A stretch of 33,721 bases of DNA from Chromatiales bacterium (GTDB lineage Bacteria > Pseudomonadota > Gammaproteobacteria > CAMYNG01), in the NCBI GenBank assembly GCA_027021685.1, contig JALUTW010000332.1:1-33721 (forward strand). Direction: 5' to 3'. The translations under genes and the position numbers were made by a program. Under the pieces are notes generated by a model, which had not been told where the DNA came from, did no database searches, and worked only from the letters and a program-made list of their open reading frames with translations. Shown here piece after piece: positions 3,918-25,641 of this stretch; within the stretch, counting starts at the first letter, position 1; each line of letters begins with the position of its first letter.

Positions 3918-5000
3918 ATGACCACCCTGGACAATTACATCGGCCGCAACGTCATCGCCGGCGTGCTCATGGCCCTGGTGGTGATCACGGCGCTGTTCGT
4001 GCTCATCAGCTTCGCCGGCGAGTTCGACGACGTGGGCCGGGCCCGGTACGACTACTGGACCGCCCTGGGCTACGTCCTGCTGCGGGCACCGCGGCGCATG
4101 TACGAGGCCTTTCCCGTGATCACGGTGCTGGGGGTCATGCTGGGGCTGGGCACGCTGGCCGGCCGCGGCGAGCTGGTGGCGGTGCGTGCCGCCGGCGTTT
4201 CCACCCTGCGTATCGTGCTGTCGGTGCTGCGCGCGGCCCTGCTGCTCATGGTGGCGGCCTTCATCCTCGGCGAGGTGGTGGCGCCGCCGGCGGAGCAGTA
4301 CGGGCAGCAGATGCGCCTCACGGCGCTGGCCAGCCGGGTGGGGCTCAACACCCGCTACGGCCTGTGGGTGCGTGACGGCAGCAACTTCGTCCACGTGCAG
4401 CAGGTGACCAACGACGGCCGGCTGGTGGGGGTGTACGTTTACACCTTCGATCGTTCCCGGCGCCTGGCCACCGTGACCTACGCCCGCGAGGCCCGGCCGG
4501 TGGAAGACGGCTGGCGCCTGCATCAGGTGCGCCGCAGCCATATCGGCCGCGAGCACGTGGAGACCGAGCGCCTGGCGGTGCTGGGGCCGGTGCCGCTGTT
4601 GCCGGCGGACGTGATCCGCACGGTGTCCCTGTCGCCGGACGTGTTGTCCGTCTGGCGCCTGCGCGATTACATCGACTACCTGGAGCAGAACGGCCTGGAC
4701 AAGCGTCCCTACGAGCTGGCGTACTGGAACAAGGTGATGATGCCGCTGGCCATCGCCGGCATGGTGCTGCTGGCCGTGCCCTTCGTCATGGGCTCGGTGC
4801 GCCACGTGCCGGTGGGACAGCGGGTGTTCACCGGCTTCATGCTGGGGCTGGGCTTCTTCGTCGTCTCGCGCCTGCTGGGGCAGATGGTGCTGGTGCTGGA
4901 GGTGCCGGTACTGGCGCCGTGGCTGCCGCTGCTGGGGGCGGTGGCGCCGGTGCTGCTGGTGATCGGGGTGGGCGTGGTGCTGTTACGCCTGCGCCTGTGA
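3918..5000 (+). CDS. lptG: LPS export ABC transporter permease LptG
   Basis: MTTLDNYIGRNVIAGVLMALVVI is a YjgP/YjgQ-type N-terminus. It is a paralog of the preceding gene. The ATG at 3918 lies 11 nt after the lptF stop; GTG 3912 is also possible. Confidence 0.85.
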   Translation: MTTLDNYIGRNVIAGVLMALVVITALFVLISFAGEFDDVGRARYDYWTALGYVLLRAPRRMYEAFPVITVLGVMLGLGTLAGRGELVAVRAAGVSTLRIVLSVLRAALLLMVAAFILGEVVAPPAEQYGQQMRLTALASRVGLNTRYGLWVRDGSNFVHVQQVTNDGRLVGVYVYTFDRSRRLATVTYAREARPVEDGWRLHQVRRSHIGREHVETERLAVLGPVPLLPADVIRTVSLSPDVLSVWRLRDYIDYLEQNGLDKRPYELAYWNKVMMPLAIAGMVLLAVPFVMGSVRHVPVGQRVFTGFMLGLGFFVVSRLLGQMVLVLEVPVLAPWLPLLGAVAPVLLVIGVGVVLLRLRL

Positions 5001-5519
5001 CGGCCGGGGGACGCACACCACCCGGGTCCGGGTGAGGCGATCGCGCCAGGTCCAGGGCGAGCACTCGTAGATCACCCAGGCCGCGCCCAGGGCCAGCAGG
5101 ACGCCCGGGGCCGGCCGCAGCAGCAGGTCCAGCGGCGGGCGCAGGTGGAAGGCGGCGCCGGTGGTGGCGCGCAGCAGCCCGAACACGAACAGCGACCACG
5201 CCGGCAGCGCAGTGACGAAGCGTGCCAGTGCCTGGGCCCAGCTCACCGGCCCGCCGTCGGCGCGTTGCAGGCGGATGCGCCACGCCCGCATGCCCGCGGT
5301 CTGGCCGCCGCGGGTCCAGAACCAGCCAAAGAAGGCGAAGGCGACGCCCAGGAAGTAGAGTGTGACCAGGGGATGGCCCGGGCGCACGGGCTCGCCGCCG
5401 GTGAGCGGCAGCAGCAGGGCCGCCGCCACCAGCCACAGGGCCAGCACCAGCAGGGCGTCGTAGATCACCGCCCCCAGCCGCCGCCACAGGCCGGCCGGCC
5501 GCAATGCGGATTCAGACAT
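4983..5519 (-). CDS. RDD family membrane protein
   Basis: 178 aa. It has N-terminal RRLGAVIYDALL, several hydrophobic helices and C-terminal WRDRLTRTRVV, which is the RDD-domain pattern. Its 3' end overlaps the lptG 3' end convergently by 18 nt. Confidence 0.7.
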   Translation of the reverse strand: MSESALRPAGLWRRLGAVIYDALLVLALWLVAAALLLPLTGGEPVRPGHPLVTLYFLGVAFAFFGWFWTRGGQTAGMRAWRIRLQRADGGPVSWAQALARFVTALPAWSLFVFGLLRATTGAAFHLRPPLDLLLRPAPGVLLALGAAWVIYECSPWTWRDRLTRTRVVCVPRPSQAQA

Positions 5520-5617
5520 GGATCGCCGTCCACTGCATCGAACGATGATGGCCGCGTGCCCGCCGCCGTGTCAACGCATGCCCGATGCTGCATGCAAGGT
5601 TGGGGCCGGGGCCGTGG

Positions 5618-5646
5618 TTGCAATGCGGGGACGTGCACGGTATTAA
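5618..5646 (+). promoter_or_regulatory. candidate sigma70 promoter for the three-gene DUF2173-like operon
   Basis: TTGCAA (5618-5623), an exact 17-nt spacer, then TATTAA(T) (5641-5647). This is one of very few AT-rich hexamer pairs with correct spacing in this GC-rich window. It is followed by a perfect 8-bp leader hairpin, ATGCCGCC-GGCGAG-GGCGGCAT (5657-5678), and GGAG at 5681-5684. Confidence 0.45.
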
Positions 5647-5696
5647 TGCCGCAAGGATGCCGCCGGCGAGGGCGGCATGCGGAGACAACAACAATC

Positions 5697-6053
5697 ATGA
5701 GCATCATCTCTGAACTGGCCGCCGTGCCCGGCGTCATCGCTGCCGGCGAGTATTCCTACCGCGGCGATCGCTTCACCTTCGAGGGACAACTGGACGAGGA
5801 CAAGGCCCGCATGGCCTCCATCATGTGCCGCGCCACCACCATGGCGGTGCACATGCAGGTGGACATGATGAAGGGCCTGGGCCGGGACTGCGGCTGCGCA
5901 CCGGCACGCGGCTGGGTGGTGCGCGGGGCCCGGTTCTCGGTATGCGTCATCGCCAACGTGTTCTGCTTCGTCGACAACGAGGCGGCCTCGCTCAACGAGG
6001 TCCTGGAACTGATGCGGGACAGGGTGCCGCACCAGGAAGGGGAGCTGGTCTGA
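5697..6053 (+). CDS. small protein, DUF2173/Roadblock-like paralog 1
   Basis: 118 aa from ATG 5697. It shares the C-terminal motif GW.VRG....SVC....N..C.VDN.EASLNEV with paralog 3, and has an N-terminal L..VPGV.AAGE.S..GD pattern. The family assignment is from memory of Pfam DUF2173 and is unverified. Confidence 0.65.
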   Translation: MSIISELAAVPGVIAAGEYSYRGDRFTFEGQLDEDKARMASIMCRATTMAVHMQVDMMKGLGRDCGCAPARGWVVRGARFSVCVIANVFCFVDNEAASLNEVLELMRDRVPHQEGELV

Positions 6054-6080
6054 CGCCGCCGGCGACACGAGGAAATCCAC

Positions 6081-6419
6081 ATGCCTGATCTCGACAGCCT
6101 GATGCAACTGGATGGGGCCATGGCCGCCTTCCGCTTTTCCGACAAGGGCGAGCTGCTGGAGCACCGCATCGCCCCCGGCAACGAGCTGACGCCGGACATC
6201 CTCGACCTGCTGTGCCACGTGTGCGTGGCCAACATGGCCATCGCCACCATGCAGGCCCGGGGCTGGGAGAAGATGACCGGCATGGGCGGGTTCTATCCCA
6301 TCCAGGGGTTCTCCATGGTGGGGTTCGAGTGGACGGCCATCACGGGGGACGGCTGGGGCGTGGTGGTGCCCAACGCCCGGGCGGACTTCGAGGCGGCCTA
6401 CGCCGCTCTCGGCCAGTAG
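6081..6419 (+). CDS. small protein, diverged DUF2173/Roadblock-like paralog 2
   Basis: 112 aa, starting 27 nt after paralog 1. It has the same N-terminal pattern (LMQLDGAMAAFRFSDKGELL), a CHVC motif, and lacks the VDN.EASLNEV tail. Confidence 0.6.
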   Translation: MPDLDSLMQLDGAMAAFRFSDKGELLEHRIAPGNELTPDILDLLCHVCVANMAIATMQARGWEKMTGMGGFYPIQGFSMVGFEWTAITGDGWGVVVPNARADFEAAYAALGQ

Positions 6420-6430
6420 GGCGGCGGGCC

Positions 6431-6763
6431 ATGATCAAGCGCCTGCTGGCTCTCGACGGCGTGCTGGTGGTGTGCCAGTTCCGTGACGACGGCGCCCTGG
6501 TGGGCGGCTACGGCATGATGGACGAGGCGCAGATGGCGGGCCTGGCCAAGTTCGCCCACGATTACAAGCGCATGGTCCAGGGCAACGCCGACCAGCTCTC
6601 CATGTTCACCCAGATGCGCGGCTGGACGCCGCCGGGCGGCTGGCTGGTGCGGGGCCCGGCCCTGTCCGTGTGCAGCGTGGGCAACCTGGTGTGCGTGGTG
6701 GACAACGCCGAGGCCTCGCTCAACGAGGTCATGCAGCAGCTCGCCGAGGCCGCCCACTGGTAA
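6431..6763 (+). CDS. small protein, DUF2173/Roadblock-like paralog 3
   Basis: 110 aa from ATG 6431, 11 nt after paralog 2. Contains LLALDGVLVVCQFRDDGALV and GWLVRGPALSVCSVGNLVCVVDNAEASLNEV, clearly homologous to paralog 1. Confidence 0.65.
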   Translation: MIKRLLALDGVLVVCQFRDDGALVGGYGMMDEAQMAGLAKFAHDYKRMVQGNADQLSMFTQMRGWTPPGGWLVRGPALSVCSVGNLVCVVDNAEASLNEVMQQLAEAAHW

Positions 6764-6853
6764 TCCGGCCCCGGCGCCTGCTGGTTCGGTCCCGGCGCAT
6801 CCGGTAAGATCGCGGCCCTGACTTCCGTCCCGAGCCACCACCGGAATCCGCCC

Positions 6854-16650: not shown

Positions 16651-17514
16651 TCAGCGCCGGCCGCCGCCGCCGATGGAGGCCAGCAGGGCGTCCAGCATCC
16701 GGTCGGGCAGAACCCGGCGCAGGCGGGCCAGCAGGTGGGTGGGCACGGTGACGTAGTAGCGGGTGCGCGGGCGGCGGCTCTCCAGGGCATGGATCACCTT
16801 GCGCAGCACGGCCTCCGGCGGCAGGGTGAAGGGGGCGGCGTCGCCCTCGTGCGCCAGCCGTTCCGCGACTCCGGCATAGTGGTCGCGGAACGGGCTGCTG
16901 GCGACGTCGATGTTGCGGCGGAAGTGCTCCATGGCGTTGGCCCGGAAGCGGCTGCGGATGGGGCCCGGCTCGATGAGGCTGACATGGATGCCGGTGCCGC
17001 GCAGCTCCAGGCGCAGGGTGTCGGTGAGTCCCTCGAGGGCGAACTTGGAGGCGTTGTAGGCGCCGCGGAAGGGCAGGGCCACCAGGCCGAGGATGGAGCT
17101 GTTCTGGACGATGCGCCCGTGGCCCTGGCGCCGCATCACCGGCAGCACCCGGTTGGTGAGGTCCACCCAGCCGAACAGGTTGGTCTCGAACTGCGCCCGC
17201 AGGACCTCCCGGCGCAGGTCCTCCACCGCACCGGGCTGGCCGTAGGCGCCGTTGTTGAACAGGGCGTCCAGGCGCCCGCCGGTGCGCACGAGCACCGCCT
17301 CCACCGCGGCGGCGACGGAGTCGGGGTCGTCGAGATCCAGGCACAGGCTCTCCAGCCCCGGCTGTTGCAGGGCATTGAGCCGCTCCACGTCGGCGGCGCG
17401 GCGCGCGGTGGCGAACACGCGCCAGCCGCGCCCGGCCAGGCCGCGTGCCACGCATTCCCCGATGCCCGACGAGCAGCCGGTGACGAGGACGCTGCGCCGG
17501 CCGTCCGTACTCAT
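16651..17514 (-). CDS. short-chain dehydrogenase/reductase (SDR) family oxidoreductase
   Basis: 287 aa with VLVTGCSSGIG (TGxxxGIG), NNG and YNASKFALEG (YxxxK). Its start overlaps the upstream gene's stop (ATGA at 17511-17514). Confidence 0.9.
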   Translation of the reverse strand: MSTDGRRSVLVTGCSSGIGECVARGLAGRGWRVFATARRAADVERLNALQQPGLESLCLDLDDPDSVAAAVEAVLVRTGGRLDALFNNGAYGQPGAVEDLRREVLRAQFETNLFGWVDLTNRVLPVMRRQGHGRIVQNSSILGLVALPFRGAYNASKFALEGLTDTLRLELRGTGIHVSLIEPGPIRSRFRANAMEHFRRNIDVASSPFRDHYAGVAERLAHEGDAAPFTLPPEAVLRKVIHALESRRPRTRYYVTVPTHLLARLRRVLPDRMLDALLASIGGGGRR

Positions 17515-18182
17515 GCCAGCAGCACGGCCACGATGCCGGTGATGAAAATGCCGTCGAAGGTGCCGGCGCCCCCGATGGAGGCCACCGGCGTGCCCATGCG
17601 GCGGATGTCCTTGAGCCGCAGCAGGTCGGCGCCGATGAGCACGCCCAGGGTGCCGCTGATATAGGCCAGCGGTGCGCTGGCCTCGGGGGCCAGCAGCAGC
17701 GCCGTCAGGGCCGCGGTGACGGGGGCGATGAGCACGGGCATGCCGATGCCCACGCCGGGCACCGGGCGGCTGAAGGCATAGCTCACCCCGCCGACGATGG
17801 TGATGCCGGTGATCACCGTGGCCGCCGGCAGTGGGGCGTGGTGGAGCAGGAACAGGGAAAACAGCACCGGGGCCAGCCCGCCGCCCACGTTGATGGCGAT
17901 GACGGTGCGGCCCTGGAAGGGCCGCCGCGGTGGTGGCAGCAGGCCGCGGTAGGGCAGGGGGACCGGCGGCGGTGCCGGCGGCGCCTCGGCCTCCACCGAA
18001 AACAGCGGGACGTTGATGAGGCTGCCCACGAGGAACACCAGCAGCAGGAGTGCGGCACTGCCCGGCGACAGCCCCAGCTTGTCCAGCACGATGGTGATGA
18101 CCCCGAGCTGGATGAAGGTCACCAGCAGGATCAGCCCCAGCAGGAGCAGCAGCAGCGTGAACAGTGACGGCAACGGACGCAT
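17511..18182 (-). CDS. integral membrane protein, DUF1614-like
   Basis: 223 aa and very hydrophobic. The C-terminal IGGAGTFDGIFITGI motif resembles what I remember of DUF1614. It is translationally coupled to the SDR gene. Confidence 0.6.
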   Translation of the reverse strand: MRPLPSLFTLLLLLLGLILLVTFIQLGVITIVLDKLGLSPGSAALLLLVFLVGSLINVPLFSVEAEAPPAPPPVPLPYRGLLPPPRRPFQGRTVIAINVGGGLAPVLFSLFLLHHAPLPAATVITGITIVGGVSYAFSRPVPGVGIGMPVLIAPVTAALTALLLAPEASAPLAYISGTLGVLIGADLLRLKDIRRMGTPVASIGGAGTFDGIFITGIVAVLLA

Positions 18183-18213
18183 GGCCGTGGGGAATGATGA
18201 GACAGGTGCCGAT

Positions 18214-18591
18214 TCAATAGGTGAGGGTCAGGACCCCGTCCTCGATGGCGGCGCCGATGAAGGCGGCTCCCCCGCGCACGCCGTCCAGCTCCGGAATGGC
18301 GGTGTCCGCGGTGATGCCGTTTTCCTCCATGGCGCCGCCGCACAGGTAGAAGCGGGCGCCGGCCTGGTGGGCGTCCTGCATGAAGGCATAGAGCGACTTG
18401 CTGCGATCGCGGCCGGGGAACAGGTTCTCGGCCACGCCCTTGCGCAGCAGGGCCGCGGTGCGCGAGGCGAAGTAGATCTCCACCTCCAGGTCCATGGCCG
18501 CGGCCACCGTGGCCTGGAAGAAGGGCGCCCCCAGGGTGGCCGGCACCTCGGGGCTGGCGTTGAGCAGCATGATGACGACTTTGTGGGCCAT
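18214..18591 (-). CDS. DsrE/DsrF-like family protein
   Basis: 125 aa from ATG 18589-18591 (MAHKVVIMLLNASP...FYLCGGAME...). Size and pattern fit the DsrE-like fold family. The longer 174-aa ORF version has an Arg/Pro-rich N-terminus and was not used. Confidence 0.55.
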   Translation of the reverse strand: MAHKVVIMLLNASPEVPATLGAPFFQATVAAAMDLEVEIYFASRTAALLRKGVAENLFPGRDRSKSLYAFMQDAHQAGARFYLCGGAMEENGITADTAIPELDGVRGGAAFIGAAIEDGVLTLTY

Positions 18592-18825
18592 GGGTGACTT
18601 GCGGCGCCGGGTGGCGGCTATTCTCGCACAGGGGCAAGGGCGGTGCACGGTGCGCCGTGGAACCTGTCCCGGGATCATCCGCGGCGCCGCATCGCCGGCC
18701 CGTACAATGGGGACTGTGCCGAGCGGCGCGAAGCCCACCGTGACGCCGAGGACACCTTCGGCCTTGGATAGGCGCCGGGTGTCCCCATTTTAGGCCGAGG
18801 CGGCCGCAGGCCGGACGGGGTGGGC

Positions 18826-21227: not shown

Positions 21228-23753
21228 GTGAGACAATACTGGAAATCGGACTGGTTCATCGGTCTGCTGGTGGCCCTGGCGTTCCTCGCCCTGTCCGCCG
21301 CCGGCGGACTGGAGACCCTGGAGTGGAAGGTCTACGACCTCGGAGTACGCTTCTCCTCGGCCCGTCCGGCCAGCACCGAGGTGGTGGTGGTGGCGGTGGA
21401 CGATTCCTCGCTCCAGGCCCTGGGGGCCTGGCCCTGGCCCCGGGACATGCTGGCCCGGGTGGTGGCCCGGATCAGCGCCGCCCGGCCCCGGGCCATCGGC
21501 CTGGCCCTGCCCCTGGACACCCGCCAGAGCACCCGCGGGCTGGAGTACATCAAGGCCCTGCGCGAGGTGTTCCGCCGCAACTGGGGGGCCACCGGGGACT
21601 CCATCAAGCGCCTCCTGCGCCAGGCCGAGACCGGCCTGGACACCGACCGGGTGCTGGCCGAGGCCCTGCAACGGGCCCGCGGCGTGGTGCTGGCGCTGCC
21701 CTACCGCAGCGGTGAGGCGGCCACGGGCGGGACCCCGGTGGAGCTGGGCCCGGAGGTGGGCGCCCGCCTGCTCCACAACGTGACCGGCGAAACGGACGGT
21801 GGCTGGTGGCGGCGGCTGCGCGGCATGGGCGTGCCCGAGGCGACGGTGGTCTATCCGCCCCTGCCCGAGTTCGCGCGCCACAGCCGGGCCGTGGGGCATT
21901 TTCCCGCCTTCGCCGACAGCCGGCCCAACGCCCGCTACGAACCCCTGGTGCTGCGCTACGGGGAGCACTACATCCCGTCCTTTTCCCTCGTGCTGGCGGC
22001 CCTGGCCCAGGGGCTGAAGCCCTCCGACCTCAAGGTGGACCTGGAGCGGGGCGTGGCGACCCTGGGCCGCACGGCACTGCCCAGCGACGGCCGCCTGCGG
22101 GTCTACCCCTATTTCTACTCGCGGCGCGAGGGCCGGGCCGCCTTCGCCCAGTATTCCATCCGCGACGTGTTCCGGCGCAAGGTGCCGGCCCGGGCCTTCC
22201 GCGGCAAGACCGTGATCATCGGCCTGGTGGCCAGCCAGCAGGTGATCCCGCTGGAGACCCCGGTGGGGCGCCAGCCGCCGGTGCTGGTGGCGGCGCACAC
22301 GGTCTCGGCCCTGCTCAACGGGGACCTCTACCGGCTGCCGCCCTGGGCCGGGGGCCTGCGCCTGGGCCTGCTGGCCGTGGTGGCGCTGTACCTCATGTTC
22401 GCCCTGCCGCGGTTCCGCATCGGCACCGGGCTGGCGCTGTCCATGCTGCTGCTGTTCGCGCTGCTCAACGTCCATTTCATTCTCATGATCTCCCAGTCCC
22501 TGTGGCTGCCGCTGGCGCTGCCCATGCTGGCGCTGGTGGTGGGGCACGGCGTGCTCGGGGCCAAGCACCTGCTGGAGGAACGCCTGGGGCGGGTGCGCTC
22601 GGAGCTGTCCGAGGCCAACCGCATGCTGGGCCTGTCGTTCCAGAGCCAGGGCCAGCTCGACATGGCCTTCGACAAGTACCGCCAGTGCATCGTGGACGAG
22701 CCGCTGCTGGACCAGCTCTACAACCTGGGCCTGGACTACGAGCGCAAGCGCCAGTTCAACAAGGCCGAGTCGGTGTTCAAGTACATCCTCAGCCACCGCG
22801 AGAAGTTCCGCGACGTGCAGGAGCGCCTGTACCGCAACAAGGAGATCTCCCAGGCCTTCGCCCTCGGGACCTCCAGCGCCGGCAACGGCAACAGCACCCT
22901 GATCCTCCACACCACCGGCATCCAGAAGCCCATGCTGGGCCGCTACCAGATCGAAAAGGAGCTGGGCCGCGGCGCCATGGGCATGGTCTACCTGGGCCAG
23001 GATCCCAAGATCGGCCGCACCGTGGCCATCAAGACCATGAGCCTGTCGCAGGAGTTCGAGGGCGAGAAGCTGGACGACGTGCGCAAGCGTTTCTTCCGCG
23101 AGGCCGAGACCGCGGGCCGGCTCAACCATCCCAACATCGTCACCATCTACGACGTGGGCGAGGACCAGGAGCTGGCCTATATCGCCATGGACTACCTCAA
23201 GGGCGAGTCGCTGCTCGCCTACTGCAAGCCGGACAAGCTGCTGCCCGCGCCGGAGGTCTTCGACCTCATGATCCAGGTGGCCGAGGCCCTGGACTACGCC
23301 CACAGCCAGAACGTGGTCCACCGCGACATCAAGCCCGCCAACATCATGTATGACCGCGAATCGGGCAGTCTCAAGGTGACCGACTTCGGCGTCGCCTGCC
23401 TCACCGATGCCAGCAAGACCAAGACCGGCACCATCCTGGGCAGCCCCTCGTACATGTCGCCCGAGCAGCTGGCGGGGAAGAAGGTGGACGGGCGCTCGGA
23501 TCTGTTCTCCCTGACCATTACCTTCTATCAGCTGCTGACCGGCGAGCTGCCCTTCATCGGTGAATCGCTGGCCAGCCTGATGTACAAGATCGCGAACGAG
23601 AAGCACCCGGACGTGCGCATGTTCAGGCCCGACCTGCCGTCCTGCGTGAGCAAGATCATCAACAAGGGGCTGCACAAGGATGTCGAGCGGCGGTTCCAGT
23701 CGGGACAGCAGATGGCCAATGCGCTACGGCGCTGCCGCGAGCGCCTGGAGTGA
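21228..23753 (+). CDS. CHASE2 sensor domain-containing serine/threonine protein kinase
   Basis: 841 aa from GTG 21228. Order of domains: N-terminal TM; CHASE2-like extracytoplasmic region; three hydrophobic helices (about residues 365-440); TPR-like segment; C-terminal Hanks kinase with GRGAMGMVY, VAIK, HRDIKPANIM, DFG and SPSYMSPE. Confidence 0.9.
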   Translation: MRQYWKSDWFIGLLVALAFLALSAAGGLETLEWKVYDLGVRFSSARPASTEVVVVAVDDSSLQALGAWPWPRDMLARVVARISAARPRAIGLALPLDTRQSTRGLEYIKALREVFRRNWGATGDSIKRLLRQAETGLDTDRVLAEALQRARGVVLALPYRSGEAATGGTPVELGPEVGARLLHNVTGETDGGWWRRLRGMGVPEATVVYPPLPEFARHSRAVGHFPAFADSRPNARYEPLVLRYGEHYIPSFSLVLAALAQGLKPSDLKVDLERGVATLGRTALPSDGRLRVYPYFYSRREGRAAFAQYSIRDVFRRKVPARAFRGKTVIIGLVASQQVIPLETPVGRQPPVLVAAHTVSALLNGDLYRLPPWAGGLRLGLLAVVALYLMFALPRFRIGTGLALSMLLLFALLNVHFILMISQSLWLPLALPMLALVVGHGVLGAKHLLEERLGRVRSELSEANRMLGLSFQSQGQLDMAFDKYRQCIVDEPLLDQLYNLGLDYERKRQFNKAESVFKYILSHREKFRDVQERLYRNKEISQAFALGTSSAGNGNSTLILHTTGIQKPMLGRYQIEKELGRGAMGMVYLGQDPKIGRTVAIKTMSLSQEFEGEKLDDVRKRFFREAETAGRLNHPNIVTIYDVGEDQELAYIAMDYLKGESLLAYCKPDKLLPAPEVFDLMIQVAEALDYAHSQNVVHRDIKPANIMYDRESGSLKVTDFGVACLTDASKTKTGTILGSPSYMSPEQLAGKKVDGRSDLFSLTITFYQLLTGELPFIGESLASLMYKIANEKHPDVRMFRPDLPSCVSKIINKGLHKDVERRFQSGQQMANALRRCRERLE

Positions 23754-23785
23754 CGTGAACCGGAACCGACGATGAAGCGGGGAAC

Positions 23786-24574
23786 ATGATTTTGAAGGCA
23801 GCCTTTCACGGTCTCACGGACGTGGGCCTCATGCGCGAGCACAACGAGGACAGCATCCTGTGGGACACCGACCTGGGGATGGCCCTGCTGGCCGACGGCA
23901 TGGGTGGCCACAATGCCGGCGAGGTGGCCTCGGCCATGGCAGTGGAGCAGGTCCGGGCGGCCCTGCGCGAGGCCTTCCTCGCCCGCGACTGTGAGGAGAA
24001 GGCCGACTGCAGCGAGGTGGTGCGCCAGGCCATCCACACCGCCAACCAGCGCATCTGGGACGCCTCGCAGGAGAATACCGAGTGCGCCGGCATGGGAACC
24101 ACCCTGGTGCTGGCCCTGCTGCACGACGGCGACATGGTCACCGCCCACGTGGGGGATTCCCGTATCTACCGCCTGCGTGACGGCGTGCTGGAGCAGATCA
24201 CCTCCGACCACTCGCTGGTCCAGGAGCTGGTGGACAACGGTTACCTCAGCCAGGAGGAGGCGAAGCTGTCGGTGAGCCGCAACCTCATCACCCGGGCCCT
24301 GGGCATCGGGGCCGAGGTGGAGGTGGAGGTGAGCCAGGAACCGGCCCAGCCCGGCGACCTCTACCTGTTGTGCTCCGACGGGCTGTCGGACATGGTCACC
24401 GACTCCGAGATGGGGGCCATCCTGCAGGAGCCGGATCCGGACCTGGACGAGACCGCCCGGCGCCTGGTGGACCTGGCCAACCGCAAGGGCGGAAACGACA
24501 ATATTTCCGTGATCCTCATGACGGTCCGGGAGGCCTTCTCGGATGACAAGGGATTGACCGATTCGGTAGGATAG
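23786..24574 (+). CDS. PP2C-family Ser/Thr protein phosphatase
   Basis: 262 aa containing REHNEDS, ADGMGGH, GDSR, LCSDGL and GGNDNIS. Confidence 0.9.
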   Translation: MILKAAFHGLTDVGLMREHNEDSILWDTDLGMALLADGMGGHNAGEVASAMAVEQVRAALREAFLARDCEEKADCSEVVRQAIHTANQRIWDASQENTECAGMGTTLVLALLHDGDMVTAHVGDSRIYRLRDGVLEQITSDHSLVQELVDNGYLSQEEAKLSVSRNLITRALGIGAEVEVEVSQEPAQPGDLYLLCSDGLSDMVTDSEMGAILQEPDPDLDETARRLVDLANRKGGNDNISVILMTVREAFSDDKGLTDSVG

Positions 24575-24578
24575 ACCC

Positions 24579-25271
24579 ATGGCGAAGCTGATTCTGGTGC
24601 ACGAGGGGGCGGTGATCCGCGAGTATCCGCTGGACAAGGAGCGGGTCACCATCGGCCGCAAGCCCTCCAACGACATCCAGCTGGACGACCCCACGGTCAG
24701 CGGCCAGCACGCGGTGGTGCTGACGCTCCAGAACGTCTATGTCGAGGACCTGGGCAGCACCAACGGCACCCTGCTCAACGGCAAGCGCATCAACAAGCAG
24801 ATGCTCAAGCACGGGGACGTGGTGCGCATCGGCCGCCACGAGTTCCGGTTCGTGGACGAGCGCGCGGCCGACTTCGACAAGACCATCGTCATCTCGCCCG
24901 GCGCCGTCCCGCCGCCCCCGCCGCGGCCGGCGGCCGGTCCCGGCGTCACCCGGCCGGAAGGGGCGGCCCCGCCGCCGGCCCAGCCCGCCAGGGGCCGCAG
25001 CGCCATGGTCAAGGTCATCAGCGGTCCCAAGACGGGGCAGAACATCGTTCTCAACAAGCCCTATACCACGCTGGGCTCACCCGGGGTGCAGGTGGCGGTC
25101 ATCGCCCGGCGCGGGACCTCCTATTATCTGATGCCCATGGGCGGCATCGGGCAGCAGGACAACCCGCCGCGTCTCAACGACAAGGCGGTGGGGGCCCAGA
25201 GCCTGCCGCTCAAGGAGGGCGACGTCATCGAGGTGGCGGGCAGCAAGCTCCAGTTCACCCTCAACGGCTGA
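24579..25271 (+). CDS. FHA domain protein (N-terminal FHA, Pro-rich linker, C-terminal FHA-like domain)
   Basis: 230 aa. Contains TIGRKPSNDIQLDDPTVSGQHA...[13 protein letters not shown]...RIGRHEFRF. The linker is PPPPPRPAAGP. The C-terminal approx. 90 aa have a degenerate FHA-like pattern. The start lies 4 nt after the phosphatase stop. Confidence 0.85.
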   Translation: MAKLILVHEGAVIREYPLDKERVTIGRKPSNDIQLDDPTVSGQHAVVLTLQNVYVEDLGSTNGTLLNGKRINKQMLKHGDVVRIGRHEFRFVDERAADFDKTIVISPGAVPPPPPRPAAGPGVTRPEGAAPPPAQPARGRSAMVKVISGPKTGQNIVLNKPYTTLGSPGVQVAVIARRGTSYYLMPMGGIGQQDNPPRLNDKAVGAQSLPLKEGDVIEVAGSKLQFTLNG

Positions 25272-25281
25272 GGGCGGGGCC

Positions 25282-25641
25282 ATGGCGCGTCTCGTGCTCA
25301 GCCACGCCGGGGTGGTCCTCAAGACCTACGAGCTGGAGAAGGAATCCACCAGCATCGGCCGCCGCAGCGGGGCCGACATCCAGCTCGACGACGCCGTGGT
25401 GAGCAGCCAGCACGCCCGCGTGTTCCGCGTGCCCAGCGATTACCTGGAAGGTCACTACGATTACTGGATCGAGGACCTGGGCAGCACCAACGGCACCGTG
25501 GTCAACGACAAGAAGATCACCCAGCCGGTGATGTTGAAGAACGGTGACACCGTGCGCATCGGCCGCCACCGGTTCACCTTCGACTCGGGGCAGGGCACCG
25601 GCCACGAGCAGACCGCCATCTACCTCCCCGACAGCGATTGA
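25282..25641 (+). CDS. FHA domain protein
   Basis: 119 aa containing [22 protein letters not shown]...[13 protein letters not shown]...RIGRHRFTF. It is a close paralog of the N-terminal domain of the preceding gene. Confidence 0.85.

Follow-up and report, generated by a model that had tools for sequence, protein, structure and literature searches.

The DNA analyzed here is a contig of 33,721 nt from a Chromatiales bacterium (JALUTW010000332.1), which we refer to in its full length as the window. The region at positions 5618-6763 carries three short genes in tandem whose products belong to the domain family DUF2173. We call these genes P1, P2, and P3, and they are laid out as follows, with GC3 denoting the GC content of third codon positions:

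5697-6053, plus strand: P1, DUF2173 paralog 1, 118 amino acids (aa); open reading frame (ORF), PF09941, GC3 of 0.89
6081-6419, plus strand: P2, DUF2173 paralog 2, a diverged "A-like" subunit, 112 aa; ORF, PF09941
6431-6763, plus strand: P3, DUF2173 paralog 3, the most conserved subunit, 110 aa; ORF, PF09941

An initial annotation of this region, made from the letters alone, had described three same-strand ORFs of these sizes separated by 27 nt (P1-P2) and 11 nt (P2-P3), and our ORF analysis agrees with this description. The ribosome-binding site of P2 is GAGGA, located 7 nt upstream of its start. GC3 values of 0.89-0.96 across the trio, in a window whose overall GC content is 70%, are similar to those of the surrounding genes, which indicates that P1 through P3 are native coding genes. 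From the evidence presented below, we conclude with near certainty that the trio is an ancient, fixed operon of Roadblock-fold paralogs that lacks an accompanying GTPase.

All three proteins match PF09941 (DUF2173) over their full length, each spanning model positions 2 to 105 or 106, with 124.9 bits for P1 (E = 2.1e-36), 111.9 bits for P2 (E = 2.3e-32), and 125.7 bits for P3 (E = 1.2e-36), compared to a gathering cutoff of 26.1 bits. Thus, the DUF2173 assignment made initially is correct, as is the resemblance seen between P1 and P3, which are 31% identical over 102 aa; P2 has diverged much further. DUF2173 is a small family that accounts for 208 of the 50%-identity clusters among 1.84 billion representatives. 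It also reaches Archaea, because one retrieved locus (L155, 2791-3126) holds a single-copy DUF2173 gene on a contig that additionally encodes Cren7 and an SSO6904-like protein, and is therefore from a crenarchaeote, probably of the Sulfolobales. Among plasmid records, DUF2173 appears only as a single copy in Methylocystis, where the gene context is uninformative. No matches for P1, P2, or P3 were obtained in NCBIfam, in PADLOC (E ≤ 0.01, anti-phage defense), or in the PDB when searched by single sequence, and a PDB search with a DUF2173 family profile did not recover solved Roadblock proteins by sequence.

The initial annotation had also called the three proteins Roadblock-like. None of them matches the Robl_LC7 model (PF03259) at E ≤ 1 (gathering cutoff 23 bits), and so the link to Roadblock proteins rests on structure; P0320, a member of a distant DUF2173 subfamily, just meets the gathering score with 23.1 bits. 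P3, the one trio member that was modeled, gave an AlphaFold2 structure with a predicted local distance difference test (pLDDT) score of 87.8, a predicted template modeling (pTM) score of 0.81, and an alpha-beta-beta-alpha-beta-beta-beta-alpha topology (helices at 2-7, 32-60, and 97-108; strands at 11-17, 23-28, 70-74, 78-83, and 86-91). When this model was compared to the PDB with Foldseek, the top 50 matches were all of the Roadblock/LC7 fold, with template modeling (TM) scores of 0.52-0.73 and identities of 11-20%; these include LAMTOR/Ragulator subunits, MglB, dynein LC7, an Asgard Roadblock protein, and the Streptomyces structure 3kye. We are confident in the model's prediction that P3 has the Roadblock/LC7 fold, and common Pfam membership suggests that P1 and P2 share it. 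The Roadblock-like designation therefore stands at the level of family and fold, but not at the level of the Robl_LC7 sequence model.

The conservation of the trio is strong evidence that it is a unit. A scan of one genome per species (185,579 species) yielded 208 relatives of P3, and the best 80 loci were analyzed (individual loci are given below by L numbers). The order and orientation of P1-P2-P3 are kept in all 80. P2 is always the second gene, and P1 leads the trio in 78 loci; in the remaining two, it is truncated by a contig end or its start could not be called. In addition, a hidden Markov model (HMM) search of six-frame ORFs found exactly three DUF2173 genes, and zero extra copies, in 81 of 81 sequences. 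L001 is 97-99% identical to the window. Every host among the 80 that is named below the class level is a sulfur-oxidizing gammaproteobacterium, and the hosts include Thioalkalispiraceae, Thiogranum, Thiohalobacter (among them T. thiocyanaticus), Thioalkalivibrio denitrificans, Thiohalomonadales, Woeseiaceae, and metagenome-assembled genomes of Chromatiales.

A metagenome scan for distant relatives, which used a pattern designed from a four-sequence alignment, uncovered a second trio lineage. Here the P1-P2-P3 order is present in 48 of 58 loci, with the other 10 being truncated contigs or weak partial matches, which brings the ordered trios of both lineages to approximately 130 loci. The neighbors of the distant trios are unlike those in Gammaproteobacteria, and include sufC/sufBD, a set comprising MgtC, a transposase, and a KaiC-like gene, and genes for GGDEF, methyltransferase, TauD, and PLD proteins. 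In a neighbor-joining tree, each of the three classes is monophyletic across both lineages (bootstrap values of 80% for P1, 92% for P2, and 86% for P3), which indicates that the three-gene set arose once and was then maintained. The question of whether the trio co-occurs as a unit elsewhere, and with what flanks, is therefore answered by its retention in 80 of 80 gammaproteobacterial loci and in 48 of 58 distant loci whose flanks are different.

One unusual arrangement was found in L097, where a complete trio (496-1561) is followed 3 kb downstream by the start of a second copy (P1-P2 at 4588-5359, cut by the contig end). This is the only duplication of the trio unit that we encountered.

The genes that immediately flank the trio in the window are those named in the initial annotation, as Pfam annotation of the window agrees:

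4983-5519, minus strand: RDD-family gene, divergent from P1
6854-10747: purL, the downstream neighbor of P3

These flanks raise the possibility that the trio acts in the envelope or in housekeeping, either by working with the RDD membrane protein and LptFG or by contributing to purine synthesis through read-through into purL. Consistent with this, the RDD gene is divergent and adjacent in nearly all of the 80 gammaproteobacterial loci, with lptF-lptG on its far side, and purL follows the trio in about half. Furthermore, the 90 nt that separate the P3 stop from the purL start (6764-6853) yielded no intrinsic terminator, and therefore the trio transcript could read through into purL in this genome. 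However, purL is displaced in the other half of the loci, and the distant trios have no RDD, Lpt, or purL neighbors, which largely refutes this explanation. Conservation is also uneven. The trio genes are under strong purifying selection, with mean identities to the window of 64% for P1, 65% for P2, and 73% for P3, compared to 67% for PurL and only about 41% for LptF, LptG, and RDD; the identity of P3 exceeds that of PurL in 25 of 28 loci. We consider a role dictated by these neighbors to be very improbable.

Conserved partners are found in a sister branch of the family. More distant DUF2173 genes form two-gene pairs in Rhodocyclaceae, in genomes resembling those of Aquificota, and in others. 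Within such a pair, HMM scores mark the product of the first gene (A) as P2-like and that of the second (B) as P1/P3-like; reciprocally, P2 scores closest to A. A gene for an SCP2-domain protein follows the A-B pair in six lineages (L081 among them), and a PAS-sigma54 enhancer-binding protein gene adjoins the pair in five of these six. Sigma54 promoters precede the first DUF2173 gene in L082 and L083 (TGGCACGGCCATTGCT) and in L084 (TGGCACGGTTATTGCT), all with the maximum score of 20.5 of 20.5, and in L086 (TGGCATTATATTTGCC), which is a strong match. In one Rhodocyclaceae genome, the pair operon runs on into soxY-soxZ.

Upstream of the pair operon in L085 (7480-7540), TGCAACA(A/T) is repeated four times over about 55 nt (TTGCAACATACTATGCAACAATTTTAAAGCATGCAACAATTTTTGCAACATC). 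These repeats probably serve the adjacent sigma54 activator as enhancer (upstream activating sequence) sites. A degenerate TGGCATG-N4-TTTAT element lies closer to the start codon.

In three independent protein clusters (74-78% identical), A, B, and SCP2 are fused into a single chain in the order of the operon. A model of this fusion (pLDDT of 81, pTM of 0.62) contains two Roadblock domains and an SCP2 domain, the last of which matches Thermus SCP2 (TM of 0.8) and UbiJ-SCP2. These fusions are the best available evidence for physical contact between two different DUF2173 subunits. The pair-type module differs from the trio in having two subunits, always an SCP2 gene, and usually a sigma54 activator and promoter, whereas the trio of the window has none of these partners in cis. 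The initial description of the trio as an orphan, self-contained operon consequently applies to the trio lineages, but not to the sister branch with its SCP2 protein and PAS-sigma54 activator.

Roadblock/LC7 domains are best known for their association with small GTPases (MglB-MglA, Ragulator-Rag) and with dynein. Pfam annotation of the 33.7-kb window shows no small GTPase. Likewise, tblastn searches (E ≤ 0.01) with MglA and H-Ras probe sequences gave no MglA/Ras-like match in the window and 152 further loci. The initial statement that no GTPase is encoded nearby thus holds across 153 sequences and 1.83 Mb.

This result bears on one alternative, in which the trio proteins form an MglB-like dimer that serves as a GTPase-activating or guanine nucleotide exchange factor for a Ras-like small GTPase whose gene lies in another part of the genome. 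MglB of Myxococcus and Thermus is a Roadblock protein of about 110-130 aa that forms a cytoplasmic dimer and acts as the GTPase-activating protein of the NTPase MglA. It shares its fold with P3 (TM of 0.65-0.72), including the extra C-terminal helix, and Roadblock proteins such as MglB, LAMTOR, and LC7 classically regulate NTPases. In contrast, MglB is a homodimer, and mglB is normally adjacent to mglA, whereas the locus examined herein has three fixed paralogs with conserved cysteines, no match to Robl_LC7, and no GTPase gene in the 1.83 Mb searched. The conserved partners of the family are instead SCP2 and a sigma54 AAA+ activator. Therefore, we regard an MglB-like function as quite improbable. 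Similarly, CvnB of the Streptomyces conservons (CvnA-D operons) is a bacterial Roadblock signaling subunit, and Streptomyces 3kye is among the top P3 matches. However, the Roadblock gene of a conservon is accompanied by genes for a sensor kinase, a DUF742 protein, and a GTPase, and this set is absent from the window and was not found by clustering the neighbors of the distant loci.

We consider it probable that the products of P1, P2, and P3 form a hetero-oligomer built on Roadblock-type dimers, as the initial annotation had suggested. This is the most economical reading of the strict 1:1:1 co-occurrence of the genes, their fixed order, their tight or overlapping spacing, and the fusions of two DUF2173 domains in relatives. 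Two further observations point in the same direction. First, A and B always occur together in the sister branch. Second, residues 41-60 form the segment of lowest entropy in each of the three paralogs, and this segment corresponds to helix alpha2 of the P3 model. Alpha2 is the dimerization helix in solved Roadblock dimers (MglB, LC7, and LAMTOR), and edge strand beta3 also contributes to Roadblock dimerization. In P3, 11 invariant positions fall within residues 41-60 and the invariant residues cluster at 41-71, while residues 51-70 have the lowest pLDDT of the monomer model (56-68). Strong conservation of alpha2 next to a region of low predicted confidence would be expected if this were an interface that becomes ordered when a partner binds. 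In such a complex, P2 would be the "A-like" partner, P1 and P3 would be two "B-like" partners, and P2 would pair with P1, with P3, or with both.

A known architectural parallel is Ragulator (LAMTOR2-5, of the MP1-p14 type), whose structures 5y39 and 5y3a are the best Foldseek matches of P3. Ragulator uses paralogous Roadblock subunits in obligate heterodimers to form one scaffold, and the A-B pairs and fusions suggest the same architecture for DUF2173. However, Ragulator docks Rag GTPases through the Rag Roadblock domains and is anchored to the membrane by LAMTOR1, and no such partners exist here. Moreover, the bacterial trio represents an independent radiation within DUF2173, separate from the eukaryotic complex.

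The initial annotation had drawn attention to cysteines in all three proteins, and their conservation was computed over about 80 orthologs. In P1, C44 and C83 are each conserved at 100%, C90 at 97%, C65 at 89%, and C67 at 49%. The corresponding values in P3 are 94% for C15, 88% for C81, and 99% for C88. P2 has no well conserved cysteine. Thus, the C-x6-C pair noticed in the tails of P1 and P3 is a genuine feature of these orthologs (88-100% per position), whereas the CHVC of P2 (46% and 73%) and the CGC of P1 (89% and 49%), on which the earlier suggestion of redox or metal chemistry drew, are not well conserved. What is conserved is the hairpin C-x6-C together with a third cysteine in P1 (C44) and in P3 (C15). 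In the model, C81 and C88 of P3, and by equivalence C83 and C90 of P1, bracket the two-residue turn of the beta4-beta5 hairpin; judging from this secondary structure, the members of each pair should be direct cross-strand neighbors. The trio has its alpha2 cysteine in a "CAAN" motif and its beta4 cysteine in an "SVC" motif in common with the pair-type A/B proteins and with the distant trio.

These residues could also be viewed as ligands. In this alternative, P1 and P3 would each bind a metal ion or an iron-sulfur cluster through C44, C65, C83, and C90 of P1 and through C15, H43, C81, and C88 of P3, and the complex would be a cluster carrier, a scaffold, or an electron-transfer module. Each of the two proteins does have three highly conserved cysteines, supplemented by C65 (89%) in P1 and by the nearly invariant H43 in P3. 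In addition, a sufC-like ABC ATPase gene and a SUFBD_core gene lie about 280 nt downstream of a distant trio, on the same strand (L087, 7006-8647; also L088), and this adjacency might reflect an Fe-S link. However, it occurs in one lineage only, and the ligand sets differ between the trio lineages, in that the distant g1 protein has no beta4 cysteine and the gammaproteobacterial P3 has no alpha2 cysteine. P2 has no conserved cysteine at all, entire DUF2173 subfamilies are free of cysteine, and neither Pfam nor NCBIfam shows an Fe-S or metal-binding signature. Metal or cluster binding is thus unlikely.

Several loci place sulfur-related genes beside the trio. In a Woeseiaceae-like lineage (L065, which is truncated, L067, L068, and L077; 83-88% identity), a PAS-sigma54 activator gene and a divergent gene for an SQR-like flavoprotein are inserted between P3 and purL. 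The sensor domain of the inserted activator in L068 (10398-13167) carries Cys71, Cys82, Cys89, and Cys94, and the tri-Cys motif of this activator type aligns with that of the activators from the DUF2173-SCP2 modules of L084-L086. This insert is a hint, from a single lineage, of a FisR-sqr-like sulfide-response arrangement. FisR-type sigma54 activators of Cupriavidus and Acinetobacter sense sulfide or persulfide and control sulfur-oxidation genes (PMC7315123). FisR differs in that sensing is carried out by the regulatory domain of the activator itself, and no activator of this type is encoded near the trio in the window. We know of no Roadblock or SCP2 accessory proteins of FisR.

Elsewhere, a gene encoding a fusion of Rhodanese and metallo-beta-lactamase domains, an architecture that resembles persulfide-dioxygenase/rhodanese fusions, lies 86 nt upstream of P1 on the same strand in L100, L101 (6742-7956), L104, and L118. 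In L123, such a gene is downstream of the trio. We give this neighbor little weight because it derives from near-identical contigs plus one other locus, and thus from one or two lineages. Finally, a putative DUF2173-domain gene of Sulfolobaceae was reported to be upregulated 99-fold and 32-fold on elemental sulfur (PMC11323534), and the gene of L155 may correspond to it.

Such neighbors, together with the sulfur-oxidizing hosts and the conserved cysteines, could also be taken to mean that the complex handles sulfur directly, as a cytoplasmic persulfide or sulfane-sulfur carrier that has a nonregulatory role like that of TusA, DsrE, or SoxYZ and feeds sulfur oxidation. The pair-type operon that continues into soxY-soxZ, the Rhodanese-metallo-beta-lactamase gene 86 nt upstream of P1 in one lineage, and the sulfur-induced Sulfolobaceae gene, if its identity is as supposed, would all fit this explanation. 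However, in about 130 loci the trio is never located within a sox, dsr, or hdr cluster, and its neighbors are housekeeping or variable genes. Furthermore, the family associates predominantly with a transcription activator and its sigma54 promoter, and to our knowledge no member of the Roadblock fold is a carrier. For these reasons, we judge sulfur trafficking by the trio to be distinctly unlikely.

The explanation that we favor is that the trio encodes a hetero-oligomeric, GTPase-independent Roadblock sensor or adaptor that is plausibly linked to thiols or sulfur. Taken as a whole, this proposal is tentative and falls somewhat short of being probable. The complex would be a cytoplasmic sensor or adaptor rather than an enzyme. 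Its conserved cysteines (the beta4/beta5 cross-strand C-x6-C and the third cysteine of P1 and P3) would register a thiol-reactive signal, for example sulfane sulfur or redox state. Through contact between proteins, this signal would then reach a regulator whose gene lies elsewhere; by analogy with the pair-type modules, an AAA+ sigma54 activator is the most plausible candidate. The thiol- or sulfur-sensing role is the more doubtful portion of this proposal, although it is possible given the host range, the partners in the sister branch, the scattered sulfur neighbors, the conserved cysteine pair, and the one transcriptomic report from Sulfolobaceae.

A number of observations weigh against this explanation. 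No SCP2 homolog is present in the window or at any trio locus (tblastn, E ≤ 1e-4), no SoxYZ gene or conserved sigma54 activator occurs at the trio loci, and the window has no bacterial enhancer-binding protein gene. A sigma54 promoter was considered as a general trio feature and rejected: 18% of 79 loci reach the threshold, compared to 4% of shuffled sequences and 10% of reverse strands. Near-perfect sites are found in a Thiohalobacter-type subset (L044, L062, and L063). Because the trio loci lack SCP2, Sox, and a conserved sigma54 activator or promoter, the regulatory link is borrowed from a sister branch whose relationship to the trio is weakly resolved; tree support for grouping P2 with A is 36%, and that for grouping P1 with P3 is 47% (bootstrap values). 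The pTM of 0.62 for the fusion model derives from a shallow alignment. No cysteine is conserved in every trio subunit, and several DUF2173 subfamilies are entirely cysteine-free. The sulfur-gene neighbors are each restricted to one or two lineages, and the authors of the Sulfolobaceae study call the induced gene product a membrane protein (PMC11323534).

The leader of P1 carries several additional features:

5607-5622: weak sigma54-like string CGGGGCCGTGGTTGCA, overlapping the putative sigma70 promoter; score of 16.5 of 20.5
5618-5646 (5647 with the final T), plus strand: putative sigma70-type promoter TTGCAA-N17-TATTAA(T); 8 of 12 consensus positions
5658-5680, plus strand: leader stem-loop ATGCCGCC-GGCGAG-GGCGGCAT, a perfect 8-bp inverted repeat
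5683-5696, plus strand: CA/A-rich leader tract GAGACAACAACAAT, abutting the P1 start codon

The initial annotation had assigned a near-consensus promoter to the operon. TTGCAA-N17-TATTAA is a plausible P1 promoter, since a like arrangement, TTGCAA-N17/18-TATT(T)AAT, recurs upstream of P1 in L002 and L037. However, the term near-consensus is not warranted for a match at 8 of 12 positions, and a promoter scan did not report this element, owing to this partial match and to the absence of the final T. The sigma54-like string shows no conservation across loci. The predicted fold of the stem-loop RNA has a free energy of -19.5 kcal/mol (z of -2.6 compared to shuffled sequences), and an Rfam search of the region, stem-loop included, matched no family. 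Elements like GAGACAACAACAAT, in the forms ACAACAA, ATAACAA, and ATAATAA, are found in the leaders of most aligned orthologous loci. We take this CA/A-rich tract to resemble the (ARN)n or AAnAAnAA motifs of Hfq type, and such a resemblance would suggest post-transcriptional control.

The rest of the window is core chromosome and includes pepA, lptF, lptG, an HD-GYP gene, a GGDEF-EAL gene, aspS, a Ser/Thr-kinase/PP2C/FHA cluster, yebC, ruvB, and tolQ-tolB. The cluster, at 21228-25641, is of a eukaryote-like signaling type and comprises genes for a Ser/Thr protein kinase with a CHASE2 sensor (841 aa), a PP2C phosphatase, and two FHA-domain proteins, followed immediately by yebC. On the minus strand at 16651-18738, genes for a short-chain dehydrogenase, a DUF1614 membrane protein, and a DsrE/DsrF-like protein (174 aa) are consecutive. 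The DsrE-like gene, which is 12 kb from the trio, is compatible with the genome of a sulfur oxidizer.

The trio is not categorically new, because DUF2173 is a catalogued domain of unknown function within a known fold superfamily. However, the literature that could be searched makes no mention of its fixed P1-P2-P3 architecture, its extreme conservation, its independence of GTPases, or the link of the family to SCP2 and sigma54 activators. The term "DUF2173" was found in one paper only, and the combination of roadblock, SCP2, and sigma54 yielded nothing relevant. Neither a dedicated paper nor a phenotype for any member was found in the literature, nor was a solved DUF2173 structure found in PDB searches.

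We speculate that, in chemolithotrophic sulfur oxidizers, the trio could be a bacterial "mini-Ragulator," a heterotrimeric or hexameric Roadblock scaffold that operates without a GTPase and whose cross-strand cysteine pair is a sulfane-sulfur or redox switch acting on an NTPase, either an AAA+ sigma54 activator or a different one. This specific form of the proposal is rather unlikely. If true, thiol sensing by a Roadblock protein, and Roadblock regulation of an NTPase other than a GTPase, would each be seen for the first time. Cultured hosts of the trio exist, namely Thiohalobacter thiocyanaticus and Thioalkalivibrio denitrificans. The function of DUF2173, once worked out, would extend the range of known Roadblock targets, and the trio may represent an unrecognized signaling or sulfur-handling component in environmentally important sulfur-oxidizing Gammaproteobacteria and Aquificota.

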